Notes: a model not told the origin generated them from the sequence alone. Numbered from the stretch's first letter, positions 5,743 through 48,296 are shown. The stretch is DNA of 64,000 nucleotides from an uncultured Gammaproteobacteria bacterium (GCA_964626205.1 CAZVED010000003.1:70421-134420), one strand, 5' to 3'. Translations and numbers: made by a program.

Positions 5743-7559
5743 TGGAGCTCAAGAATATCCGTAATTTCTGCATCATCGCGCATATCGACCACGGCAAGTC
5801 CACACTGGCCGATCGTCTTTTGGAGCATACGGGAACGGTTACGAAGCGCGAAATGAAGGATCAGCTGCTCGATCAGATGGACTTGGAGCGCGAGCGTGGC
5901 ATCACCATCAAACTGACGCCGGTACGCATGCGGCACACGGCGAAGGACGGTGCGTCGTACATGCTGAATCTCATCGACACACCGGGGCACATCGACTTCA
6001 CCTACGAAGTGTCGCGCTCGCTTGCGGCCGTCGAAGGCGCCATCCTGCTTGTTGACGCCACGCAAGGCGTCCAGGCACAGACCATCGGCAACCTCTACCT
6101 CGCGATGGATCAGGACATCACCATCATTCCGGTGGTGAATAAGATCGACATGCCGGCTGCAGAGCCGGAGAAGGTCCGCGACGAGATTGTGCATCTCTTA
6201 GGCTGCGCGCCGGAGGATGTGCTGTACGTCTCTGGAAAGACCGGCCAAGGCGTCGATGCGCTGTTGGAAGCCGTCATTGCGCGCATTGCGCCGCCGGAAG
6301 GAAACCCTGAAGGTTCGCTTCGCGCACTCGTTTTCGATTCCATGTACGACACGTATAAAGGCGTCGTCGCGTACGTGCGTGTCATCGACGGGCATATCGA
6401 GAAGGGTAAAGACGTCCGGCTCGCCAGCGGCGGTGTCGAGTCCGAAACGCTCGACGTCGGATTTTTCTCGCCGAAGTACGTGGGGTCGCCGGATCTCAAA
6501 GCCGGCGAGATCGGCTACATCGTCACGGGGCTCAAGGACATCGAGTCCTGCCGTGTTGGCGACACCATCACCGTGCCGGATTTTCAGGCGCGCGGCGTCG
6601 TGCCACTCGATGGCTACAAGGAAATCACGCCGATGGTCTTCGCGGGTATCTACCCGCAGGAAGGCGACGAGTACGACAAGCTCCGCGAGGCGATGCTGAA
6701 GATGAAGCTGTCGGACGCGGCACTGACATTCGATCCGGAACATCAGGTCGCGCTCGGATTCGGATTCCGTTGCGGCCTTCTCGGATTGCTGCACCTTGAG
6801 ATTCTCCAAGAGCGCCTGCGCCGCGAGCATAACATCGAGGTCATCGTCACGGCGCCTTCTGTGGCGTATCAGGTCGAGAAGACCGACGGTTCGAAACTTA
6901 TCGTGAAGTCCGCGCTCAACTTGCCCGACCCCACGCATATCGAGGAAGTCACCGAACCGTGGGTGAAGCTCGACATCATCACGCCGAAGCAGCATATCGG
7001 CGCGGTCATGGCGTTCGTGCAGGACCGCCGTGGCGTGTACCAGACCACGGAGTATCTCACGGCAGACACCGAAGGGGCAGCGCGTGCCATTCTGCACTAC
7101 GAGATCGCTCTCGCACCTATCCTCGTGGACTTCTATGACAAGCTGAAGAGTGTCACGTCCGGCTACGCGTCGATGAATTACGAGATCATCGGGTATCGGC
7201 CGGCGAATGTCGTACGCATGGACATCCTTGTCGCCGACGACGCAGTGGACGCGCTTTCCTCCATCGTCTATCGTGAGGATGCAGAGCGTGAAGGTCGCAA
7301 GATCTGCAAGACGCTCATCGAGTCGCTTCCGCGGCAGCAGTTCGCGGTGAAGGTGCAAGCCATGGTCGGCGGTACCATCGTCGCTTCCGAGCGCCTCTCT
7401 GCGTTCCGTAAAGATGTCACCGGCGGCCTCTACGGCGGCGACTGGACACGTAAGATGAAGCTCCTCGAGAAACAGAAGAAGGGAAAGAAACGCATGGCGA
7501 AGACCGGTAAGGTCGAGATTCCGCCCGATGCGTTCATGGCCGTGCTCAAGAAAAAATAA
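5743..7559 (+). CDS. lepA: elongation factor 4 (LepA)
   Basis: MELKNIRNFCIIAHIDHGKSTLADRLLEHTG and DTPGHIDFTYEVSRSL GTPase motifs. 605 aa. The track start 5466 is an artefactual extension. Confidence 0.95.
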
Positions 7560-34630: not shown

Positions 34631-35767
34631 ATGATCCGCTTCGATATCCTCAAACGGTCCAAGAAGAGCCGTGCACGGCTCGGTGTCCTCACAACCTCGC
34701 ATGGCGAGGTGGAGACACCAGCACTCGTCACGGTCGCCACGCAGGCGACGGTGAAGACGTTGACGGTCGAACAGGCGAAAGCGGCCGGTTCCCGCATGCT
34801 CATTTGCAATACCTTCCATTTGCACCTCAAGCCGGGCGAGAAGGTCGTGAAAGACGCTGGTGGTCTCCACGAGTTCATGCAGTGGAAAGGTCCGCTCATG
34901 ACCGATTCAGGCGGGTACCAGGTATTCAGCCTCGGGTTCGGTCGCGACTACGGTGTAGGAAAGATCCAGCATGAGCGCACGAAGGAGCGTGTCGCGAAAG
35001 GTCACCAACCGAAGCTCCTCAAAATCACCGAGGAGGGCGTGACGTTCACCTCCTACCTCGACGGACGCAAGATCTTCATGGGACCGGAAGAGTCGATGAA
35101 AATCCAGTCGGCATTGGGTGCGGACATCATCTTCGCGTTCGATGAATGTCCGCCGACCATGGCCGATCGGGCCTACTCCGAGGAATCGCTCGCTCGTACG
35201 CATCGTTGGGCGAAACGCTCGCTTGATGCTCACGACCCCAAGCAGGCACTGTTCGGCGTCGTGCAGGGCGGCAAGTACAAGGACCTTCGTGCGTTGAGCG
35301 CTAGGACGCTCGCGGCGATGCCGTTTGACGGCTTCGGTATCGGCGGCGAGTTCGGCTACGACAAGAAGACCATGACGGCCATGCTCAAGACCGTCATGAA
35401 GGAATTGCCGGACGAAAAGCCACGCCACTTGCTCGGTATCGGGCACCCGCAGGACATCGTCCGTATCATCAAGGAGGGCGTCGATACGTTCGATTGCACC
35501 GTCCCCACACAGTACGCAAGGCATGGCACGGCGTTTACCTCGCGTGGCAGGCTGGAGATCGGCCGCTCGGTCTTCCTTAAGGATAAGAAGCCGTTGGATC
35601 CGAAGTGCTCCTGCGAGACCTGTACGAACTACACGCGCGCCTATCTCTGCCACCTTTACCGCGCCAAGGAATCGCTTGCAGGGACCTTGCTCACGTACCA
35701 CAACCTCGCGTTCTTCAATGAGATGGTCCGCAAGGTGCGCGTGGATATCAAGAAGGGGAAGATCTGA
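34631..35767 (+). CDS. tgt: queuine tRNA-ribosyltransferase
   Basis: TPALVTVATQATVK...DSGGYQVFSL...zinc site CSCETC..Y..HL. 378 aa. Confidence 0.9.
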   Translation: MIRFDILKRSKKSRARLGVLTTSHGEVETPALVTVATQATVKTLTVEQAKAAGSRMLICNTFHLHLKPGEKVVKDAGGLHEFMQWKGPLMTDSGGYQVFSLGFGRDYGVGKIQHERTKERVAKGHQPKLLKITEEGVTFTSYLDGRKIFMGPEESMKIQSALGADIIFAFDECPPTMADRAYSEESLARTHRWAKRSLDAHDPKQALFGVVQGGKYKDLRALSARTLAAMPFDGFGIGGEFGYDKKTMTAMLKTVMKELPDEKPRHLLGIGHPQDIVRIIKEGVDTFDCTVPTQYARHGTAFTSRGRLEIGRSVFLKDKKPLDPKCSCETCTNYTRAYLCHLYRAKESLAGTLLTYHNLAFFNEMVRKVRVDIKKGKI

Positions 35768-35898
35768 CCGTTATTCCGACCCGCACGGGTCCTACCGCTG
35801 CGTTTCTCCACTGCTCCGCGCGCAAGGCGCGCGGCTTGTGGAGGCCTCTCGCAGCGTCACCCGTGCGGACCAAGACGTGGACCTCCTTACAGCTTCCT

Positions 35899-36960
35899 AT
35901 GTCGTATGCGTTCGAAAAACTCCTCGCTCAGTACGACTACGCCTTTCCGGAGAGCGCGGTGGCTTTAGAGCCTTCCGTGCCACGCGATGCCGCGAAGCTC
36001 GTCGTGCTCGGTCCGAAGGGCAAGGCGCGCTACGCCACGTTTCGCGAACTCATGGAGCACCTTCCGCCACAATCGGTCCTCGTCATGAACCAGACGAAGG
36101 TCATCCCGGCGCGCATTGAGGCGGAGAAGCCGACCGGCGGCAAGGTGCGCATCCTCTATGTGGCAGCAGCCGGGAAGAAGCGCTTTCACGGACTTGCTGA
36201 CCGAAAAGTCGAGCCGGGAATGGTGCTGAAGGTCGGAAAGACTGCTGTAACCGTTGTTTCACGCGAAACAGGGGACTACGTTTTTGAGGTCGCAGGAACG
36301 GCACCGCTCGCGCTTTTTAAGAAATATGGCACGACACCGATTCCTCCGTACCTGAAGCATACGAAGCTTGGCGAAAAGGCGTTGCGTGAGAAGTATCAGA
36401 CCGTCTTTGCCAAGACTGAAGGTTCCGTTGCCGCACCGACCGCATCGCTGCACTTCACAAAAAGCCTTTTACAACGTTTGAAAAAGGCCGGTCACGACAT
36501 CGTCTATGTCACGTTGCATGTAAATCTCGGCACGTTTGCGCCACTCACGGAGCGCGCGGTCGCGGAAGGGCGCTTGCATGAGGAGCCGTACGAGATTGAT
36601 GCCAAGACTGCAACGCTTCTTGCGAAGGCGAAACAGGAAGGCCGTTTCATCGTTCCAGTCGGGACAACGGCATTGCGTACGTTGGAATCCGCTGCGGATG
36701 CACATGGGAAGCTTCGGCGACTGCATGGCAACACCAGGCTCTTCATTCGTCCCGGGTATCGGTTTCGATTCGTGAGCGGACTCATCACGAACTTCCATGT
36801 CCCCAAATCCAGCCTGCTCATGCTCGTGGCAGCCATGGTCGGACGGGAACGGCTCCTCAAGCTCTACGAGGAAGCCATCGGTAAGGGGTTCCGCATCTTC
36901 TCGTTCGGTGATGGAATGCTCATCCTGCCGGCGTCAGGCAAGAGCCAGCGACTCAGATAA
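35899..36960 (+). CDS. queA: S-adenosylmethionine:tRNA ribosyltransferase-isomerase
   Basis: YDYAFPESAVALEP...TTALRTLES...NFHVPKSSLLMLV motifs of QueA. The track start 35836 is an extension. Confidence 0.9.
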   Translation: MSYAFEKLLAQYDYAFPESAVALEPSVPRDAAKLVVLGPKGKARYATFRELMEHLPPQSVLVMNQTKVIPARIEAEKPTGGKVRILYVAAAGKKRFHGLADRKVEPGMVLKVGKTAVTVVSRETGDYVFEVAGTAPLALFKKYGTTPIPPYLKHTKLGEKALREKYQTVFAKTEGSVAAPTASLHFTKSLLQRLKKAGHDIVYVTLHVNLGTFAPLTERAVAEGRLHEEPYEIDAKTATLLAKAKQEGRFIVPVGTTALRTLESAADAHGKLRRLHGNTRLFIRPGYRFRFVSGLITNFHVPKSSLLMLVAAMVGRERLLKLYEEAIGKGFRIFSFGDGMLILPASGKSQRLR

Positions 36961-38201: not shown

Positions 38202-39008
38202 ATGCGTACACTCGTCACGCACAATCAGCCCCACCTCGACGACATCTGTGCCATGTGGCTTCTGGCACGGTACCTGCCGGAATATCAGGAGGCTGCGTTT
38301 CGTTTCATTCCCACGAACTTACCGAAGGAGCAGGTGCAAGACACCGACGAGGTCACGCATATCGGTGTCGGACGCGGACAGTTCGACGAGCACAAGGGTG
38401 ACATGGATGATTGCGCCACGACGCTGGTGTACAAGCACGTGCTTGCAAGCGTGGAGATTCCGGAGATGGAACGTCGTGCACTCGACAAGCTTGTCGCCTG
38501 GGCGAAAGACGAAGACATGGGTCGACTCCTTGCCGAACCGCGTCGCGAGTTCAGCATCCCTGCCGTGTTGCAGATCGCGTTCTTCTCCGAAGGACGCGAG
38601 TCCGAACCGGTGCGCTCGCTCGGCTTCTCCTTGCTCGACGCGATCATGGTCGGGCTCCGTAACCACGTCATCATCGACATGGATTGGCCGGATCGTATCG
38701 AGTATCAATCGCGGTTCGGCAAGGCTATCGCCATTCGCACGGACGGGCAGGAGTTTCCGTCGTTCGCCTACGCTAAAGGGTTCGATCTCGTCGTGCTTGT
38801 TGGCAAGGACACCAAGTATGCGACCATCCGTGCTGCAGCGACCGCGGATGTGGACCTGACGCCAGTCCGCGACGCTATTGTGGCTGCGGAGGATGCGACA
38901 TGGTTCTTCCACCACTCCAAGCGCATGCTCATCTGCGGAGGCCAGAAGACCGACGGCACCTGTGCGAGTACGCTCACGCTTGAACAGCTCGTCGAGATGA
39001 CGAAGTGA
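38202..39008 (+). CDS. putative metal-dependent hydrolase (MYG1/UPF0160-like N-terminal motif)
   Basis: N-terminus LVTHNQPHLDDICAMWLL resembles the THNG-FH-DE-LAC-LL motif of MYG1/UPF0160. Family assignment is tentative. Confidence 0.4.
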   Translation: MRTLVTHNQPHLDDICAMWLLARYLPEYQEAAFRFIPTNLPKEQVQDTDEVTHIGVGRGQFDEHKGDMDDCATTLVYKHVLASVEIPEMERRALDKLVAWAKDEDMGRLLAEPRREFSIPAVLQIAFFSEGRESEPVRSLGFSLLDAIMVGLRNHVIIDMDWPDRIEYQSRFGKAIAIRTDGQEFPSFAYAKGFDLVVLVGKDTKYATIRAAATADVDLTPVRDAIVAAEDATWFFHHSKRMLICGGQKTDGTCASTLTLEQLVEMTK

Positions 39009-40861
39009 CCAACGCACCCATGGCGCACGATCCCGTCGTCGAGGAAATCAAATCCAAACTGGATATCGTCCAGGTTGTTTCGGAGTACGTCCAGCTCAAG
39101 AAGGCCGGCACACGCATGTCGGGCCTTTGCCCGTTCCATAGCGAGCGGACACCGTCATTTTCCGTCTCGCCAGACATGCAGTTCTGGTATTGTTTCGGCT
39201 GCAATGAAGGCGGGGACGCCATCAATTTCGTCATGCGCATGGAAGGGTTCGACTTTCCGGAGGCACTCAAGGTGCTCGCCAAGCGCACAGGCATCCAGCT
39301 CAAAGCCGAAGATCCGCAGAAATCCGGACGCCGCCAGCGGCTCATCGATGTCAATGCGGCGGCTGCGCGGTTCTTTCACGAGGTGCTTATGAAGCATCCC
39401 TCCGCCGAGACGGCACGGAAGTACGCTGCAGAGAAGCGCGCGCTCAAACCGGAAACCATCGAGGACCTGCTCATCGGGTATGCGCCGGATTCCTGGGATG
39501 CCACGTCCGCCGCGCTCAAGAAGAAAGGCTTCACGGAAGAGGAAATCGTTGCGGCAGGTATCGCTACAAAGCGTGACAAGGGTGGTGGTACGTTCGACCG
39601 CTTCCGTGCGCGTCTTATGTTCCCAATCCGCGACGTGCACGGCAACATCGTCGGTTTCACTGGCCGCATCCTTCCGGGTTCGCCGGATGCGGACAAGGAG
39701 GAAGCGAAGTACGTGAACACGCAGCAGACCGATGTCTACAATAAGTCCTCCGTGCTGTTCGGGCTAGATCGCGCCAAGCGCGCCATCCGTAAGGTGGAGT
39801 ACGCCGTCGTGGTGGAGGGAAACATGGACGTCGTGGCATCACACCAGGCCGGTGTCACGAATGTTGTGGCGAGTTCCGGCACGGCGCTGACAGAACAACA
39901 GCTCGACTTGTTGAGTCGTTACACGGACAAGCTCGTGCTCTCCTTCGATAACGATGCTGCCGGAGAGCGCGCTGCCCGTCGCGGTATCGAGCTCGCACTG
40001 CAGAAGGGGTTCACTGTGCGCGTGCTGCGCCTGCCGCCGGAAGCGGGAAAGGATCCGGACGACGCCATCCGCAAGGACGTGAAGCTCTGGCAACAGGCTA
40101 TCACGGACTCCGCACCATTCATGCAGTGGAACATCGAGCTCGTCCGTGAGCGGACGGATATGACTGATCCGGAGGCGAAGAAGGCAGCGTCGGCAGAGCT
40201 CATTGCGGAGGTCGCGAAACTTCCGTCGGCGGTGGAGCGAGCGCATTGGATCAAGGAGCTCGGCATGTTGTTCACCACGCCAGAATCCCTTTTGTTCGAA
40301 GAGGTCGAGAAAGCCCGTGGAAATGCCAAGTTCCGACCGGAGGATGCAAAGCGGAAGGTTGCTGGCATTGTCCCAGCCTCTCCTGGGGCTCGGAAGGCAC
40401 CTGGACGGGCGACACTGCTCTCCGAGACCGTGGTAGGCATGCTTTTGGCCTGGCCACGGCTTACCGAGCTCTCCGCACAGATTCTGCCGGATTTAGGCAT
40501 CCTGGAGGGAGGATTCGGCGAACTTTACAGGGATTTCCTGGCGTTCTATACTGATGAGCGATCCAAAGACGGGGCACCAGAGGAAGTCGCTATTCGCACG
40601 TATGTCCAGCGGCTCGATGAAAACGCCGCAACAATTGCCGCATCAGCCCGACTCCGTGCAGAGCACGAGTTCGAGAAGCTGAGCGACGACGGACGCCGCG
40701 ACGCACTTACCTCGCTTATCGGAGAGCTCAAGCATCTCCACGCAAGCCGTCGTCAGCAGGAGCTCACCTATGCCATGGCCCAAGCGGAAAAGGACGGGGA
40801 CATGGCCACAATCCAGCACATCCAAGAACAGTTACAAAAGCTCATGCGCGGTGACGCGTAG
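39005..40861 (+). CDS. dnaG: DNA primase DnaG
   Basis: Zinc-binding CPFHSERTPSFSVSPDMQFWYCFGC, TOPRIM domain (VVVEGNMDVV...DNDAAG). GTG at 39005 overlaps the upstream stop. An alternative ATG lies at 39020. Confidence 0.9.
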   Translation: MTNAPMAHDPVVEEIKSKLDIVQVVSEYVQLKKAGTRMSGLCPFHSERTPSFSVSPDMQFWYCFGCNEGGDAINFVMRMEGFDFPEALKVLAKRTGIQLKAEDPQKSGRRQRLIDVNAAAARFFHEVLMKHPSAETARKYAAEKRALKPETIEDLLIGYAPDSWDATSAALKKKGFTEEEIVAAGIATKRDKGGGTFDRFRARLMFPIRDVHGNIVGFTGRILPGSPDADKEEAKYVNTQQTDVYNKSSVLFGLDRAKRAIRKVEYAVVVEGNMDVVASHQAGVTNVVASSGTALTEQQLDLLSRYTDKLVLSFDNDAAGERAARRGIELALQKGFTVRVLRLPPEAGKDPDDAIRKDVKLWQQAITDSAPFMQWNIELVRERTDMTDPEAKKAASAELIAEVAKLPSAVERAHWIKELGMLFTTPESLLFEEVEKARGNAKFRPEDAKRKVAGIVPASPGARKAPGRATLLSETVVGMLLAWPRLTELSAQILPDLGILEGGFGELYRDFLAFYTDERSKDGAPEEVAIRTYVQRLDENAATIAASARLRAEHEFEKLSDDGRRDALTSLIGELKHLHASRRQQELTYAMAQAEKDGDMATIQHIQEQLQKLMRGDA

Positions 40862-40903
40862 GAGCGCCGTTTCCGCGGCAATCGCGGGACGCTAGACATC
40901 GTT

Positions 40904-42172
40904 GTGCCTATGGCGAGCGCGAAGAAGACGACGAAGAAACCGGTAGCCAAGAAGGCTCCGGCGAAGAAGGTTGCTCCGAAGAAACCGGTAGCCAAGAAGG
41001 CTCCGGCGAAGAAGGTTGCTCCGAAGAAACCGGTAGCAACACAGAAGGAAGAGGTGAAGAAGTTCATCGCACCGGAGAAATCCGTGCCGCCGAACGACGA
41101 GCAGATTGCGCGGCTTCTGCAGAAAGGGCAGATGCGCGGATTCGTCACAGAGAATGAGGTGCTCTACTTGTTTTCGAACCTTGAAGAATACGTTCCGTTG
41201 CTCGAAGAGCTGCTCGACAAGGCCGAAGGCATGGGACTTCAGATTGTCGAGATGAAGGAAGGTATCCTTGGACGTTCCGGCGAACGCCAGGGACAGCTTG
41301 ACGACATCCGCAAATCCAAGGAAACGAAGCGGTTTGATCTCACCGACATCTCGGCGGACTCCATCCAGATGTACTTGCGCGAAATCGGTAAGATTCCGTT
41401 GCTGACCGGTGAAGAAGAAGTCGCGCTCGCGAAGCGCAAGGAGCGCAACGACCGCGAGGCCGAACGCCGTCTTATCGAGGCGAACTTGCGTCTCGTGGTG
41501 TCTATCGCCAAGCGGTTCGTGGGCAAGTCGCTCTCGCTTCTTGATCTCATCCAGGAAGGAAACATCGGTTTGTTCCGCGCGGTGAAGAAGTTCGAGTACC
41601 GCAAGGGCTTCAAGTTCTCGACCTACGCCACGTGGTGGATCCGTCAGGCCATCACGCGCGCATTGGCCGACCAGTCCCGCACCATCCGCATCCCAGTGCA
41701 CATGGTCGAGACTATTAACCGCTTCCAGCAGATCGAACGCCAGCTCATCCAGGACCTCGGTCGCGAGCCGCTGCCAGAGGAAATCGCCGCAGAAATGGAC
41801 GAAGACATCGACCGCGTCCGTCACATCATGCAGATCTCGCAGGACACCGTTTCGCTCGAGACCTCTGTCGGTGAGGATGACGAAGACTCCACACTCGTGG
41901 ACTTCGTGGAAGACGTGAAGAACGTTGCCCCTGATCGTTCCGCTGCGCTCCAGTTGCTCCGCGACTACGTCCGGAGCGTCATCGCAGACCTCTCTCCGCG
42001 CGAGCAGAAGATCCTCGAAATGCGTTTCGGTCTTTTGGATGGCGTGAGCCACACGCTCGAGGAAGTCGGCCAAGAGTTCGACGTCACGCGCGAGCGCATC
42101 CGCCAAATCGAGGCCAAGGCGCTCGAGAAGATCCAGTTGCACGAAGGTATCACGAAACTGCGCGACTATTAA
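40904..42172 (+). CDS. rpoD: primary RNA polymerase sigma factor (sigma-70, RpoD) with Lys/Ala/Pro-rich N-terminal tail
   Basis: Regions 1.2, 2 ([37 protein letters not shown]), 3 and 4 ([23 protein letters not shown]) all present. Immediately downstream of dnaG, as in the classic dnaG-rpoD linkage. N-terminus [17 protein letters not shown] repeated. Confidence 0.9.
40933..41037 (+). repeat. perfect 45-bp direct tandem repeat (2.3 copies) inside the rpoD 5' coding region
   Basis: gaagaaaccggtagccaagaaggctccggcgaagaaggttgctcc at 40933-40977 and 40978-41022, plus a 15-nt partial third copy. Encodes [15 protein letters not shown]. Confidence 0.9.
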
Positions 42173-42249: not shown

Positions 42250-42795
42250 GTGAAACCACGTAACATCGGTCTCGCGGAAGCCGTGAACAACATCTTCGCC
42301 ACGTACGGCAAGAGCGTCCTCTGGGCGCTCGTGGCAGTCGGCATCATCGGTATCGTCGTCCGGTCCGGCGCGTCCGCAGAACTCTTCGGGACGCTCTCGG
42401 TAACGCCGTACTGGTTCGAGCGGGGACTCTCGCTCCTACGGGACTGGCACCCCGGCCTCTACGCGACGCTCTCCCAGAGCGCGCTCCTCATGCTCTTCAT
42501 GAAGCTCATCTTCGCGCCGGTCATGGAAGAGGCGGCATTCCGCTACTTCCCGCTGACGCTCGCGAAGAACATGGAGTACGGGCAGATCCGAGCGATTATC
42601 TTCGTCGTCGGCGGTATCGTATTCGGTGTCCTGCACGGGCATGCGCTCAACATCTTCATCCAGGGCGTCGTCGGAGTCTTCCTCGGCTACCTCTACCTGA
42701 AGAATCATCGTTCGGACCTCATGTCCTACCTGTCCTGCGTGGCGGTACACATGCTCTACAACTTCACGGTCATCATGGCTCAGGTGCTATCCTGA
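42250..42795 (+). CDS. CPBP-family intramembrane metalloprotease (CAAX protease/Abi)
   Basis: Motifs EEAAFRYF (EExxxR), FGVLH (FxxxH) and HMLYN (HxxxN/D). 181 aa. GTG start. Confidence 0.7.
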   Translation: MKPRNIGLAEAVNNIFATYGKSVLWALVAVGIIGIVVRSGASAELFGTLSVTPYWFERGLSLLRDWHPGLYATLSQSALLMLFMKLIFAPVMEEAAFRYFPLTLAKNMEYGQIRAIIFVVGGIVFGVLHGHALNIFIQGVVGVFLGYLYLKNHRSDLMSYLSCVAVHMLYNFTVIMAQVLS

Positions 42796-42901: not shown

Positions 42902-42976
42902 TCCGGGGTAGCTCAGTGGTAGAGCAGAGGACTGTTAATCCTTTGGTCGTGGGTTCGAATCCCACCCCCGGAGCCA
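42902..42976 (+). tRNA. tRNA-Asn (anticodon GTT)
   Basis: Acceptor TCCGGGG/CCCCGGA. D-arm GCTC-AGTGGTA-GAGC. Anticodon stem-loop GAGGA-CTGTTAA-TCCTT. T-arm GTGGG-TTCGAAT-CCCAC. Discriminator G plus encoded CCA. Confidence 0.9.
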
Positions 42977-43082: not shown

Positions 43083-44354
43083 ATGAAGGTGGTAGTATTT
43101 CGTCAGGAGGTCTTCATCGAAGCTATCAATATGTACAGTTACATCATCCTCCAGCTGCTCTCTGGCATCATCGGCGTCGTTGCGGCTGTGCTGATCCTTA
43201 AGGGCTTGTTCCTCATCAGGAAGAGGTCCGATAGGGCCGCAAGGATCACCATTGACATCGGTGTCGGAGCCTTGTCGCTCGCCGCGATGCTTTTTGTCGT
43301 CACCGGGATCCCGTACCCGCTCCATTTCGCCATGCCGCCGACGATGCAAGCGATGACGCACGATAAGAAGCCCGCGTCCCTGCCGATACTCGCGATGCTC
43401 GAGTTCCTCTCCAAGAGGGATCGGTTCGAGAAGGTCGCGGATATTGGCCGAGATCCCAATGATGTTCCACCGGCCGTGGGCGCCCGCGAACCCGGTATCG
43501 TAAAAATTTCCGTCCGGACCAAGGAAGTGATTTCCGAGGTCGCTCCGGGCGTCTTCTTCAACTATTGGACGTACGATGGCCAAGTGCCCGGACCGATGTA
43601 CCGGGTGAGGGTCGGTGACACGGTGGAGCTCACCATCACGAACGACCCCACGAGCATCCATCCGCACAACATCGACCTACATGCGGTCACGGGTCCTGGC
43701 GGGGGAGCGGCGGTCACGTTGGTTCAGCCAGGTGAGACGAGGACGTTCCGGTGGCTCGCCAAGCACCCCGGGCTCTACGAGTACCATTGCGCGACCGCGA
43801 ACGTCAGTACGCACAACTCGCACGGACAGTACGGCCTGATCCTGGTCGAACCCGAGGGAGGGCTGTCGGCGGTCGACAAGGAGTTCTATCTTATGCAGGG
43901 CGAGCTCTATACGCTGGGCGGCATCGGCAAGAAGGGCCTCATGGCCTTCGATACGCAGGGTCTTATCGACGGTACTCCGACGTACGTCACTTTCAACGGA
44001 AAGATCGAACAGGCGCCGCGCATGAATGCGAAGGTCGGTGACCGCATACGCATGTACGTGGGAGGTGGTGGAGTCAACCTCATTTCGTCCTTTCATGTCA
44101 TCGGCGAAATATTCGATACGGTGTATCCTGAAGGCGCGATGGGTGAAGGCTCGACGGTGCTCAAGAACGTCCAGACGACGGCGGTGCTGCCCGGCGGTTC
44201 GACCATCGTCGAGTTCACTGTCGATGTCCCGGGGGAATTCCTTGTCGTCGATCACGCGCTTGCGAGGATGAACAAAGGGGCGTGGGCGGTCCTTAAAGTG
44301 ACAGGCGACCCGCGCCCGGATATCTACTCGGAAATCACTCCTAAAAAACCTTGA
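43083..44354 (+). CDS. nirK: copper-containing nitrite reductase NirK (two-domain cupredoxin), N-terminally membrane-anchored
   Basis: Type-1/type-2 Cu ligand motifs HPHNIDLHAVTGPGGG (cf. HNxDFHAATG) and YEYHCATANVSTHNSHGQYGLILVEP (cf. YHCAP...H..G M.G). N-terminal TM (IILQLLSGIIGVVAAVLIL). Start 43083 or 43128. Confidence 0.8.
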   Translation: MKVVVFRQEVFIEAINMYSYIILQLLSGIIGVVAAVLILKGLFLIRKRSDRAARITIDIGVGALSLAAMLFVVTGIPYPLHFAMPPTMQAMTHDKKPASLPILAMLEFLSKRDRFEKVADIGRDPNDVPPAVGAREPGIVKISVRTKEVISEVAPGVFFNYWTYDGQVPGPMYRVRVGDTVELTITNDPTSIHPHNIDLHAVTGPGGGAAVTLVQPGETRTFRWLAKHPGLYEYHCATANVSTHNSHGQYGLILVEPEGGLSAVDKEFYLMQGELYTLGGIGKKGLMAFDTQGLIDGTPTYVTFNGKIEQAPRMNAKVGDRIRMYVGGGGVNLISSFHVIGEIFDTVYPEGAMGEGSTVLKNVQTTAVLPGGSTIVEFTVDVPGEFLVVDHALARMNKGAWAVLKVTGDPRPDIYSEITPKKP

Positions 44355-44634: not shown

Positions 44635-46179
44635 GTGAGCGGCCATATGCGGAAACATCATCTTCGGTACGTCCTTCTCTGCCTCGGCGTTGTCTTCGTC
44701 GCCATCATCCTCGTCGGGCAATGGCCTCGGGGAACGCCAATTGCTTCCGTATCGGATCAAGCCTTACGGCCGTCCGTTCTAGAAACGGGGATCGTCAAGG
44801 AATACGAATTGAGAGCGGAAAAGACCATGATTGAACTCCGACCCGGGTTGATGACCGAGGCTTTTGCGTATAACGCCCAAGTACCTGGCCCAGAAATCCG
44901 TCTGAAGCTCGGCGATCGCGTGAAAGTGACGCTCAAGAACAATCTGGATGAACCGACGACCATCCATTGGCACGGCATCCGCGTGCCTGCGGCGATGGAC
45001 GGTGTGCCAATGGTCAGCCAGGAACCGGTGCCTCCCGGCGGAACGTTCGTATACGAATTCGTTCCACCCGATGCCGGGACGTACTTTTATCATTCGCATG
45101 TGGCTGTCGATGATCAGGTCGATCGCGGCCTCTACGGAGCGTTCATCGTCGAGCCGTCCGATGCGCTGGATATGCGGGACGGAGTCTTCGCGCTTGATGA
45201 CTGGCTTCTCGATGCCAATGGTGTACGGTTACCGACCTCGGCTTCCGAACCGGAACTTGACATCGACAATTCCCTTGATGTCGTGAGCGAAGCGACGCTC
45301 GGACCGGTGGCGGCAAACGGCGGCCACATGATGATGGATGGTGGCATGATGATGGGGGATATGGGTGGCAGCGGCATGATGGACCACTCGCTACCCGATG
45401 CAATCAATGGCCGGTTCGGCAACGTGATGACTGTGAACGGCAAGGCGGGTACCGCCGTTGCGCCCATACGGGTCGCACGCGGCGAACGGTTCCTCGCGAG
45501 GTTCCTGAACGCCTCGAACGCCATGACGCACGAGCTGCGGGCATCCGACGGGCGATCACTTTCCATTGTGGCGGTCGATGGGATTCTTCTGACGCGGCCG
45601 TTCGTGACCGACCGGCTCATCTTTCCGCCAGCCAAACGATTCGATGTCGTCATCGAAGCCAAGGATGACGTCGACTGGGCGCTTGAGGGAGGCACGGGCG
45701 TTCGTGCCATTCGCATCCCGGTGGAAGTCGAAGGAGAGACGACGAAGGTCACGGCGCTTCCGACGGGTATATTGGCGACCATGCCGGATCTTGGTGCTGC
45801 CAAGCCCGACGCCACGTTTACTGTGTCGACCGACCGGATGATGAACGCGACTACCTGGCTTCTAAACGGTCGCCCCTTCGATATGGAGGGCGAGAACCCG
45901 ACAGTCGCGACGTTCCCGCGAGGTAAGTGGGTGAAGTTGCGGTTCGTTAATATGAGTCCCATGGCGCATACGATGCATGTGCACGGGCACTTCATGCATG
46001 TCATCGCCAGGAATGGCCAGCGAATCACCGCCGCGACGAGCGAGGACACCGTCGTCGTCCGTGCGATGGAAACGGTCGAGGTCGTCATGCTCGCCGACAA
46101 CCCCGGCGATTGGGTCGTGCATTGCCACAATCTCGAGCACGAAGAGCACGGATTGATGGCGAAGTTCAATGTCGAATAA
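44635..46179 (+). CDS. multicopper oxidase (CueO/PcoA/CopA-type) with Met-rich segment
   Basis: Cu-binding motifs HWHG, HSH, MHVHGHFMHV and HCHNLEHEEHGLM. Met-rich loop GGHMMMDGGMMMGDMGGSGMMDH typical of copper-resistance MCOs. N-terminal TM/signal. Confidence 0.85.
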   Translation: MSGHMRKHHLRYVLLCLGVVFVAIILVGQWPRGTPIASVSDQALRPSVLETGIVKEYELRAEKTMIELRPGLMTEAFAYNAQVPGPEIRLKLGDRVKVTLKNNLDEPTTIHWHGIRVPAAMDGVPMVSQEPVPPGGTFVYEFVPPDAGTYFYHSHVAVDDQVDRGLYGAFIVEPSDALDMRDGVFALDDWLLDANGVRLPTSASEPELDIDNSLDVVSEATLGPVAANGGHMMMDGGMMMGDMGGSGMMDHSLPDAINGRFGNVMTVNGKAGTAVAPIRVARGERFLARFLNASNAMTHELRASDGRSLSIVAVDGILLTRPFVTDRLIFPPAKRFDVVIEAKDDVDWALEGGTGVRAIRIPVEVEGETTKVTALPTGILATMPDLGAAKPDATFTVSTDRMMNATTWLLNGRPFDMEGENPTVATFPRGKWVKLRFVNMSPMAHTMHVHGHFMHVIARNGQRITAATSEDTVVVRAMETVEVVMLADNPGDWVVHCHNLEHEEHGLMAKFNVE

Positions 46180-46184
46180 CTGAT

Positions 46185-48296
46185 ATGTCTGATCTTCTGG
46201 AGTACGTCTGTCCGATGCATCCGGAAGTACGTCGTGACGGTCCCGGACGCTGTCCGGAATGCGGCATGGCGCTTTTGCCGGAAAAGGAAGTAGTACGGGG
46301 GCACGGAATGCACGGATCGTCGCCGCAAAAAGGAAAAGAGCCGTCGTCCAGTAAGCACGAGGGTCATTCCCTCGCGATGTTCGCGCGTAAATTCTGGACT
46401 TCATTAGCGCTGACGATTCCGGTCGTCCTGATCCAATGGGAAGCAATTCCGACGTTCACGGGTTCTTCTTTAGTAGTGGCGCTCCTCGGCTCAGTGGTCT
46501 TCTTTTATGGCGGCTTAGTCTTTCTCCAGGGTGCTGTGCGGGAAGTCCGGGCGAAACTGCCGGGCATGATGACGCTCATCTCGATTGCGATCCTCACCGC
46601 GTACCTCTGGAGCGTCTGGGCGGTGTTCATCGGTGGTGAGGCGCTGTTCTGGGAACTGACCACCCTTATCACGGTCATGCTGCTCGGCCATTGGCTCGAG
46701 ATGCGGGCAGTGCAAAGCACACAGGGTGCGCTCAAAGAGCTTTCCAAGCTCATGCCGGACCGCGTTGAAGTCGTCCGGAACGGTGACACGACGTTGATTC
46801 CACTTACCGAACTTAAAGAGAACGACCTTTTCATCGTGCGTCCGGGGGGCAAGATTGCCGCGGATGGCGTCGTGGACTCAGGTGAATCCGATATCGACGA
46901 GTCCTCTGTGACCGGCGAATCCCGTCCCGTCTCCAAACAGCCGGGCGCGGAAGTCGTCGCTGGCACAGTGAACGGCGACGGTGCGATTACCGTCCGTGCG
47001 ACGAAGATTGGCGAGAAGACGTTTCTTGCGGGCGTCATGCGACTCGTCACTGAGGCGCAGGCGTCGAAATCGCGACTACAGATGCTTTCTGACCGCGCAG
47101 CACGGATGCTTACGGCGGCAGCAATCGGCTCCGGCGCGATCACGCTCGTCGCCTGGCTCTTTTATGCCGAACCTGCCTACGCTGTCGAACGGATGGTAGC
47201 GGTGCTGGTCATCGCCTGTCCGCATGCGCTCGGCTTGGCCGTACCGCTTGTCGCCTCCATCTCCACCATGCTCGCCGCCAGGAACGGCTTTCTGGTAAAG
47301 CAGCGTCTAGCGCTTGAAGCTGCCAAGGACATCGACGTTGTTCTCTTCGACAAGACAGGAACGCTCACAAAGGGCGCGTACGGCGTCGATCACGTATGGA
47401 ACTTCGCAGGCGGAGAGACTCGTGACGTGCTGCGCCTGGCCGCCGCCGTCGATGCGCCCTCTGAGCACGTCATCGCGAAAGCGGTCATGGAGAAAGCGCG
47501 AGAGGACGGCATCGATATTCCCGCCGTTTCCGGATTTTCGCGGATTCCCGGCAAGGGCGTGAAAGGCACCCTCGGCGGAGAAGAAGTGTCCGCAGGCGGA
47601 AAATCGCTGCTCGAACACTATCAGGGCGCCATCGCGGAGCAATACGCGAAAGAGATTGATGCCGAAAATAAAAAAGGGAAGTCCATCATCTATGTGCTGA
47701 AGAGTGGCCAGCCTATCGGGGCGATTGCCCTGGCTGATATCATTCGCGAGGAATCGCGGGAAGCAATTGGGACGCTCAAGGAGATGGGACTCAAGGTCGG
47801 CATAATCACGGGCGACTCCGAGGACGTCGCTGCTTGGGTCGCAGCGGAGCTCGGCATCGATGAGGTCTTTGCCCGTGTCTTGCCGCAGGATAAGGCGGCG
47901 AAAGTGAAGCTCCTCCAGGAAAAGGGGTTGCGGACGGCAATGGTCGGCGACGGAATCAATGATGCACCAGCGCTCACACAGGCCGATCTCGGTATCGCTA
48001 TCGGCGCTGGCACTAACGTGGCTATCGAATCCGCTGGCATCATCCTCGTCAGGAACGACCCTCGCGACATTCCGAAGATCATCACGCTGTCGCGCCTGAC
48101 CTATGCGAAGATGATCCAGAATCTCTGGTGGGCATCGGGCTATAACATCGTCGCTCTGCCTCTCGCGGCCGGTGCCTTGGCCTTCAAGGGTATCGTCATG
48201 CAGCCTGCATGGGCGGCGGTTTTCATGTCACTTTCAACCGTCATTGTCGCTATCAATGCAATGACCTTACGAAAGGCGAAATTGGGACGGGGTTGA
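46185..48296 (+). CDS. copB: copper-translocating P1B-type ATPase (CPH-type, CopB-like)
   Basis: N-terminal CPMHPEV...CPECGMAL metal-binding ribbon and His-rich linker. TM-site CPH ([13 protein letters not shown]). DKTGTLT phosphorylation site. GDGINDAP hinge. The track start 46110 overlaps the oxidase, so the ATG at 46185 is used. Confidence 0.9.

Follow-up and report, generated by a model that had tools for sequence, protein, structure and literature searches.

A predicted disordered, lysine-rich tail in front of region 1.1 in a primary sigma factor of Patescibacteria

The gene analyzed here encodes the housekeeping sigma factor of a tiny-celled bacterium of the CPR/Patescibacteria. Structural modeling indicates that the protein is a complete Firmicutes-like SigA, including an acidic region 1.1 (sigma-1.1), with a basic tail as an add-on in front of it. 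The explanation that we favor, and that we regard as probable, is that this polylysine tail is disordered and inherited, and that it would provide the sigma factor with non-specific affinity for DNA. The gene lies in a stretch of 64 kb (64,000 nucleotides), called the window below, that comes from a metagenome-assembled contig. The features relevant to the analysis are all on the plus strand:

39005 to 40861, plus strand: dnaG primase gene (Pfam Zn_ribbon_DnaG, DNAG_N, Toprim, and DnaB_bind), in the same frame as the sigma gene.
40524 to 40552, plus strand: promoter-like site TTTACA-17-TATACT, found by a consensus scan (10 of 12 matches; a pattern match only).
40904, plus strand: alternative in-frame start GTG, two codons upstream of the ATG at 40910.
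40910 to 42172, plus strand: primary (group 1) sigma-70 gene, 420 aa from the ATG at 40910 to the stop at 42172, with Pfam regions 1.2, 2, 3, and 4.
40910 to 41083, plus strand: polycationic, predicted disordered N-terminal tail, residues 1-58, delimited by composition, AF2, and homologs.
40932 to 41037, plus strand: perfect 45-bp tandem array of 2.36 copies, found by TRF and by exact self-match.
41054 to 41056, plus strand: internal in-frame GTG (ATG in the sister contig L001), preceded at 4 nt by a weak AGGA.
41090 to 41248, plus strand: acidic sigma-1.1 domain, residues ~61-113, from AF2, Foldseek, a Pfam match near the cut-off, and NF006666.
41357 to 42169, plus strand: conserved sigma regions 1.2, 2, 3, and 4 (Pfam).

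An earlier note on this DNA had recognized the ORF as a primary sigma factor, and the domain searches agree with it. The four conserved regions score above their Pfam cut-offs (Sigma70_r1_2 55.0 bits, r2 83.3, r3 68.0, and r4 59.9), and the best NCBIfam matches are RpoD models. The protein does not reach the strict cut-offs of these models (442.8 vs 555 for NF004208, 429.2 vs 572 for NF006666, and 340.9 vs 354 for TIGR02393), which we read as the result of phylum-level divergence and not as the sign of a different function. The NCBI call for the gene (P0001) is 100% identical to the window sigma and uses the same ATG. Core identity to the 120 best homologs ranges from 70 to 94%, and those that are named belong to Patescibacteria, Parcubacteria, or Uhrbacteria. 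The sigma gene follows dnaG after a gap of 48 nt, and the order dnaG-rpoD is also present in the sister contig (L001), in two contigs of a related lineage (L002 and L003), and in a locus of Candidatus Uhrbacteria (L005). The identification of a housekeeping sigma factor, and its attribution to the CPR, are based on the Pfam regions, the matches to RpoD models, the adjacency to dnaG, and the Patescibacteria homologs taken together.

The promoter-like site falls within the 3'-terminal part of dnaG, with ~360 nt between it and the start of the sigma gene, for which it could be a candidate internal promoter. The complementary strand has an ORF of 416 aa (40892-42142, minus strand) lying wholly within the sigma gene, which we took as a shadow ORF and not as a gene. 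A gene encoding an Rce1-like CAAX protease is found downstream of the sigma gene in the window (42250-42795, plus strand), in L001 (2046-2642), and in L002 (2918-4134); it is doubled in L002 and L003, and the order dnaG-rpoD-Rce1-like is conserved. A tRNA-Asn (42902-42976) comes next in the window, then two ORFs of the multicopper-oxidase family (43083-44354 and 44635-46179) and, after these, a P-type ATPase with a heavy-metal-binding domain (46110-48296). The segment 43083-48296 has the appearance of a cluster for copper handling, possibly of NirK-like type, within a reduced genome of the CPR. Elsewhere in the window, tgt and queA, involved in the queuosine modification of tRNA, are side by side (34631-36960, plus strand), and an ORF of 1541 aa (11682-16307, plus strand) has zero Pfam matches.

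The delimitation of the tail depends on the start codon. The most likely start is the ATG at 40910, and not the GTG at 40904, since MAS..K opens both the NCBI call and the sister sequence. More precisely, P0001 and the 94%-identical sister protein P0002 both start at this ATG (MAS.KK). The sister contig shares the intergenic region and the ATG with the window, and the indels that separate the two tails are all in frame (+3, +3, and -6 nt). The consensus of a 73-sequence alignment begins with MxKK, with a nearly invariant M1, and more than 100 orthologs begin with M-x-K-K. The earlier note had placed the start upstream of the repeat, with the Met near residue 77 as the alternative, and the upstream position stands: we rejected Met77, which lies inside the conserved helix 1 of the confidently modeled sigma-1.1. 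There is no Shine-Dalgarno motif before the ATG at 40910. This is uninformative, since 21 of the 24 plausible gene starts on the plus strand of the window lack such a motif within 3-13 nt, which suggests that translation initiation in the source genome is mostly SD-independent. The internal GTG at 41054 is not conserved in homologs outside the pair formed by the window and L001; one may speculate that it is a candidate minor internal start leading to a tail-less isoform. Given its conservation, we infer that the lysine-rich tail is translated.

Public annotations do not always include the tail. The entry P0053 (353 aa) seems tail-less, and this is explained by a miscalled start: the ORF extends upstream to an ATG, giving MPKKVTSKK... 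and a sequence identical to P0023. In L005 (1198-2562; GCA_001791745.1, Candidatus Uhrbacteria RIFOXYC2_FULL_47_19), the public call starts at an internal Met (353 aa) and drops the whole tail. The entries P0050, P0057, P0058, and P0061 are similar to this miscall, the upstream extension having been verified for L005 alone. There looks to be a recurring miscall of the start codon in the Patescibacteria family of tailed sigma factors, whereby gene callers sometimes cut off the tail (in P0053 and probably in the similar entries).

The tail precedes a domain that the earlier note implied to be lost or replaced, namely the acidic region 1.1. This implication proved incorrect, since an acidic sigma-1.1 is kept at residues ~61-113. 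The net charge over residues 59-118 is -7, for a median of -6 in the sigma-1.1 of the homologs. AF2 models residues 61-113 as a compact domain with pLDDT of 89-96 (helices at 63-76, 81-87, and 91/95-107, strands at 78-80 and 111-113). When the N-terminal model was searched with Foldseek against 350,542 PDB chains, the top two matches were SigA of B. subtilis (9a58_A) and then the sigma-1.1 structure 5mww (TM of 0.63 on the target, and 59 columns with an rmsd of 2.9 A). These matches have weak E-values (0.03-0.37), the domain being so small. The Pfam profile Sigma70_r1_1 gives 20.1 bits, slightly below its cut-off of 22.5, and a sequence-only search of the PDB with residues ~54-157 finds region 1.1 (residues 26-120) of the RpoD 7ye1_F as a weak match (E 0.14). 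Positions 12-368 of the Firmicutes-type RpoD model NF006666 (370 positions) align with residues 62-420 of the window sigma. This alignment starts at residue 62, and the first ~61 residues are therefore extra.

These extra residues are strongly basic, as the earlier note had described in calling them a Lys/Ala/Pro tail. Residues 1-58 include 20 Lys, no Arg, and 3 Glu, for a net charge of +17, while the core is at -14 and the whole protein at +3. In the AF2 model, computed with the 73-sequence alignment, residues 1-46 have pLDDT below 50 and no secondary structure, and the disordered part (residues 1-50) lies ahead of the confident helical domain at 61-113. No other ORF of the 64-kb window has a Lys-rich tail, except for a short C-terminal patch, mixed and K-rich, at 7437-7511.

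The tail is very frequent among the relatives of the window sigma. Region 1.2 served as the anchor for 117 homologs, of which 109 have a Lys-rich N-terminal tail by the criterion of at least 20 aa. These tails are 28-153 aa long (median 61), with a median net charge of +21 (from +12 to +46) and a median Lys fraction of 0.33. The comparison of rpoD N-termini in relatives, which the earlier note had called for, hence shows that the basic tail is real and that it predates the repeat. We also made a taxon-labeled comparison, using a taxonomically mixed set of genome loci. Among the matches listed, the K-rich extension is present in loci labeled Falkowbacteria, Moraniibacteriota, Paceibacterota, Kaiserbacteria, and in most Saccharibacteria, and it is absent from the labeled loci of Bacillota and other phyla, which have short and acidic N-termini. 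A search with the core only, among representatives at 50% identity, gave many unlabeled primary-sigma-like proteins with K/R-rich N-terminal stretches, often of mixed charge. These comparisons of homologous sequences show a tail that is inherited and widespread in Patescibacteria; its charge and Lys content are kept, and its sequence and length are not. Two loci, L054 and L060 (Saccharibacteria and Patescibacteria), have no basic tail, and the N-terminus of L054 is acidic. They may correspond to paralogous sigma factors or to lineages that lost the tail.

The composition of the tail was compared with the GC content of 19 Patescibacteria loci spanning 30-61% GC. The K+R fraction of the tails (0.32-0.53) is uncorrelated with the GC of the locus (rho -0.35, p 0.14), whereas the A+P+G content of the spacers rises with it (rho 0.74, p 3e-4), with A, P, and G taking the place of I, N, T, S, L, and V. 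The window has ~59% GC, and its tail has no Arg despite this value. Because the K+R content is independent of GC while the spacers track it, and because Arg is missing at ~59% GC, the composition of the tail argues for selection on the positive charge borne by Lys, against mutational bias.

Half of the window tail is encoded by the tandem array. TRF reports, at 40932-41037, a 45-bp unit in 2.4 copies with 100% matches, no indels, and a score of 212. Direct self-comparison gives a perfect run of 61 bases at offset 45, hence an array of 106 bp (2.36 copies). The array described in the earlier note is thus confirmed, with a start at 40932 instead of 40933 and 2.36 copies; the position 41110, where the note ended its feature, has no special meaning. 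The array is in frame and encodes a unit of 15 residues twice, then KKPVA. The 64-kb window has no other strong tandem repeat, its longest perfect tandem run elsewhere being 15 bases, and the array is therefore not due to chance. As previously argued, the array is perfect and hence recent.

The sister contig L001 provides a relative date for the array. Its tail agrees with that of the window in length and in the layout of two units and a bit, with units that are 58% identical to each other, and 73% and 60% identical to the unit of the window. The DNA identity between the window and L001 is 67% in the tail and 76-77% in the flanks. Since the units of L001 have diverged, the perfect array of the window arose after the split from the sister. 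It is more likely to result from homogenization, by intragenic conversion or by contraction and then re-duplication, than from net expansion, because the total length of the tail is unchanged relative to the sister. The recent expansion proposed earlier is less parsimonious in this respect. Hence, the repeat did not create the tail, and the perfect array is its latest reshuffling, a minor recent event.

Changes in the number of units are observed in a related lineage, in line with the earlier suggestion that copy number could vary between strains. The contigs L002 (JGI 3300032401) and L003 (ENA ERZ27247851), which come from different samples, have identical aligned flanks. The length difference between them is exactly 84 bp: L002 has 4.0 copies of a perfect 42-bp unit and L003 has 2.0, in what is an assembly-level comparison of metagenome contigs. 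Two pairs of proteins, P0033/P0029 and P0023/P0030, are 100% identical apart from indels of 12 and 30 aa that correspond to repeat units. Exact tandem units of 7-15 aa were found in 9 of the 109 tails. As far as metagenome assemblies can be trusted, these data show that the tail evolves by in-frame duplication and deletion of units of 36-90 bp. Such differences in repeat number could serve as strain markers.

What would such a tail do? By analogy with other lysine-rich sequences, we infer that it functions as a disordered polycation with non-specific affinity for DNA. A disordered tail rich in Lys would give the sigma factor, and the holoenzyme, a non-specific electrostatic affinity for DNA, and would offset the net negative charge of the core. 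In E. coli sigma-70, sigma-1.1 sits in the downstream DNA channel and leaves it on promoter opening. A tail placed on sigma-1.1 might prevent the enzyme from leaving the nucleoid while it searches for promoters and while sigma is recycled. It might also grip the flanking duplex DNA, which would favor or stabilize the open complex. Nucleoid tethering, grip of flanking DNA, or both would be the most likely roles because the tail is attached to sigma-1.1. Changes in repeat number could then tune the affinity for DNA.

Several other explanations must be weighed against this one, and some of them concern the origin of the tail. The earlier note had presented the tail as generated by the 45-bp repeat, and one could think that repeat expansion newly made a basic N-terminus in place of the acidic, auto-inhibitory region 1.1. 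The N-terminus is indeed strongly basic, and a perfect repeat encodes half of the tail. Yet, 109 of 117 homologs and several lineages of Patescibacteria have the tail, that of the sister is equally long although its repeat is not perfect, and the acidic sigma-1.1 is kept. These comparative data largely refute such an origin, which we consider quite unlikely, and point to an ancestral and widespread tail. The tail could also be a neutral low-complexity sequence, driven by slippage at a permissive N-terminus and devoid of selected function. This would agree with the very poor conservation of its sequence and length (28-153 aa), with its lower DNA identity to the sister (67%, against 76-77% in the flanks), and with the frequent repeat indels. 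However, the tail is kept across deep lineages of Patescibacteria, always with at least 28 aa and a charge of at least +12, its Lys fraction hardly changes between 30% and 61% GC, a range over which the spacers drift, and it has almost no acidic residues and no substitution by Arg at high GC. Considering this, we find neutrality even less probable than a tail made by the repeat. The least probable of all is that the perfect repeat is an assembly artifact, with a mis-assembled copy number. The window does come from a metagenome-assembled contig, and no second copy of the strain was found (P0001 has no contig record, its 90% cluster has one member, and scans of metagenome DNA gave no match, one of them being uninformative because the collection lacks even the sister L001). 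Nevertheless, the 106 bp of the array are presumably shorter than common read lengths and large assembly k-mers, the array keeps the reading frame, and the tail matches in length that of L001, which was assembled independently. A collapsed or duplicated unit would have shifted this length by 15 aa.

The remaining alternatives concern function. The tail might be functional without tethering the enzyme to DNA: it might be an intramolecular partner of sigma-1.1, in an electrostatic switch of auto-inhibition; its ligand might instead be RNA, polyphosphate, or an acidic protein; or it might promote condensates. Lysine acetylation might regulate such a tail. A tail at +17 adjoins a sigma-1.1 at -7 in a protein that is nearly neutral as a whole, and the exclusive use of Lys, without Arg, would fit control by acetylation. 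There is also the precedent of the disordered N-terminus of Mtb sigma-A, which alters the Vmax and the response to CarD/RbpA with an EC50 that is not significantly different. On the other hand, the closest Lys-repeat tails that were studied experimentally bind DNA, and no specific partner or modification enzyme was identified for the window tail. We give this alternative a low but appreciable probability, and an intramolecular interaction between the tail and sigma-1.1 is a serious alternative. A more elaborate scenario seems doubtful to us: the tail would be an ancestral adaptation of Patescibacteria, at once an electrostatic partner of sigma-1.1 and a nucleoid tether, possibly offsetting the loss of accessory transcription factors from their reduced genomes, and its length would be a mutable "tuning knob", set by slippage, so that strains would differ in their global initiation kinetics. 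We thus retain as the best explanation a Firmicutes-like SigA with an inherited disordered tail that would bind DNA non-specifically.

How does this protein compare with known systems? Its core resembles SigA of B. subtilis, since residues 62-420 can be aligned over their whole length with the RpoD model of the Firmicutes type and the fold of its sigma-1.1 matches 5mww. It differs from the SigA of Bacillota in its N-terminus, which is short, acidic, and without basic extension in the latter. The tail itself is similar to the lysine repeats of HrdB, the primary sigma factor of Streptomyces: K or KK motifs alternate with 2-5 small neutral residues (A/P/T/V) within a disordered stretch of a primary sigma factor. 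Yet, the repeats of HrdB lie after an N-terminal domain, whereas the window tail is at the extreme N-terminus, ahead of sigma-1.1, and the tails are not homologous. A Planobispora locus (L052) was tried as a comparator of the HrdB type and discarded, as it encodes a short sigma factor without lysine repeats.

Lysine repeats bind DNA and raise processivity in the TopA of Streptomyces, and they have been noted in HrdB and in the RpoD of Bordetella pertussis (Strzalka et al. 2017, PMC5714199). The criteria of that study are at least 5 repeats of 1-3 K/R with 2-9 neutral residues in between, at least 10% Lys, and at least 27% Ala (PMC5714199). The window tail has 9 such repeats and 20 Lys in 58 residues (33-36% Lys overall), and its Ala content is below the 27% filter (11/45, i.e., 24%, or 12/58, i.e., 21%), with Pro and Val filling the spacers. 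Lysine repeats were suggested to be characteristic of GC-rich genomes (PMC5714199), but the tail of Patescibacteria spans 30-61% GC, which shows that sigma factors have such repeats outside GC-rich genomes as well.

The earlier note had called the tail histone-H1-like. The resemblance to the C-terminal domain of histone H1 and to the chlamydial Hc2 (PF07382) holds for composition, as all are rich in Lys, Ala, and Pro, disordered, and polycationic. It does not extend to a Pfam assignment: the HC2 profile gives 22.9 bits on residues 5-53 (E 1e-4), for a cut-off of 40 bits, although precomputed HC2 matches exist on the longest-tailed homologs. Unlike Hc2, the window tail is fused to a sigma factor and is not a nucleoid protein. 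The resemblance is one of composition and does not speak for common descent. The H1-like Lys-repeat domain of DdbA binds DNA (PMC3643593).

The mycobacterial sigma-A is another group 1 sigma factor with a clade-specific, disordered N-terminal extension (PMC11888270, PMC10011835, PMC5511352). In Mtb, deletion of the disordered N-terminus lowers the Vmax ~100-fold (PMC11888270), and an N-terminal truncation fails to complement (PMC10011835). The EC50 of the full-length and truncated proteins are not significantly different (PMC11888270), and for this reason the disordered region may not act via DNA affinity. According to the authors, the mycobacterial extension has no sequence or structural relationship to region 1.1 of E. 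coli (PMC11888270, PMC5511352). The two extensions are non-homologous and differ in composition, and the window sigma keeps a canonical acidic sigma-1.1 behind its tail. It therefore falls outside the mycobacterial class, where the extension replaces sigma-1.1: its tail is disordered, but the folded sigma-1.1 is kept.

In summary, lineage-specific N-terminal extensions and lysine repeats are already known in primary sigma factors. Distinct here are the position of the tail before a retained canonical sigma-1.1, its presence across Patescibacteria irrespective of GC, and the change in repeat number in a related lineage. Our search of open-access papers and preprints found no description of such a sigma tail in Patescibacteria/CPR. 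The Patescibacteria, a very large bacterial branch with reduced genomes, are for the most part uncultured, and we know of essentially no study of their transcription apparatus. If all housekeeping sigma factors across much of the group have a disordered polycationic tail before an intact, auto-inhibitory sigma-1.1, promoter search, auto-inhibition, or open-complex formation may differ somewhat in Patescibacteria. The tailed sigma factor would then be a natural and independent counterpart to the N-terminus of the mycobacterial sigma-A.
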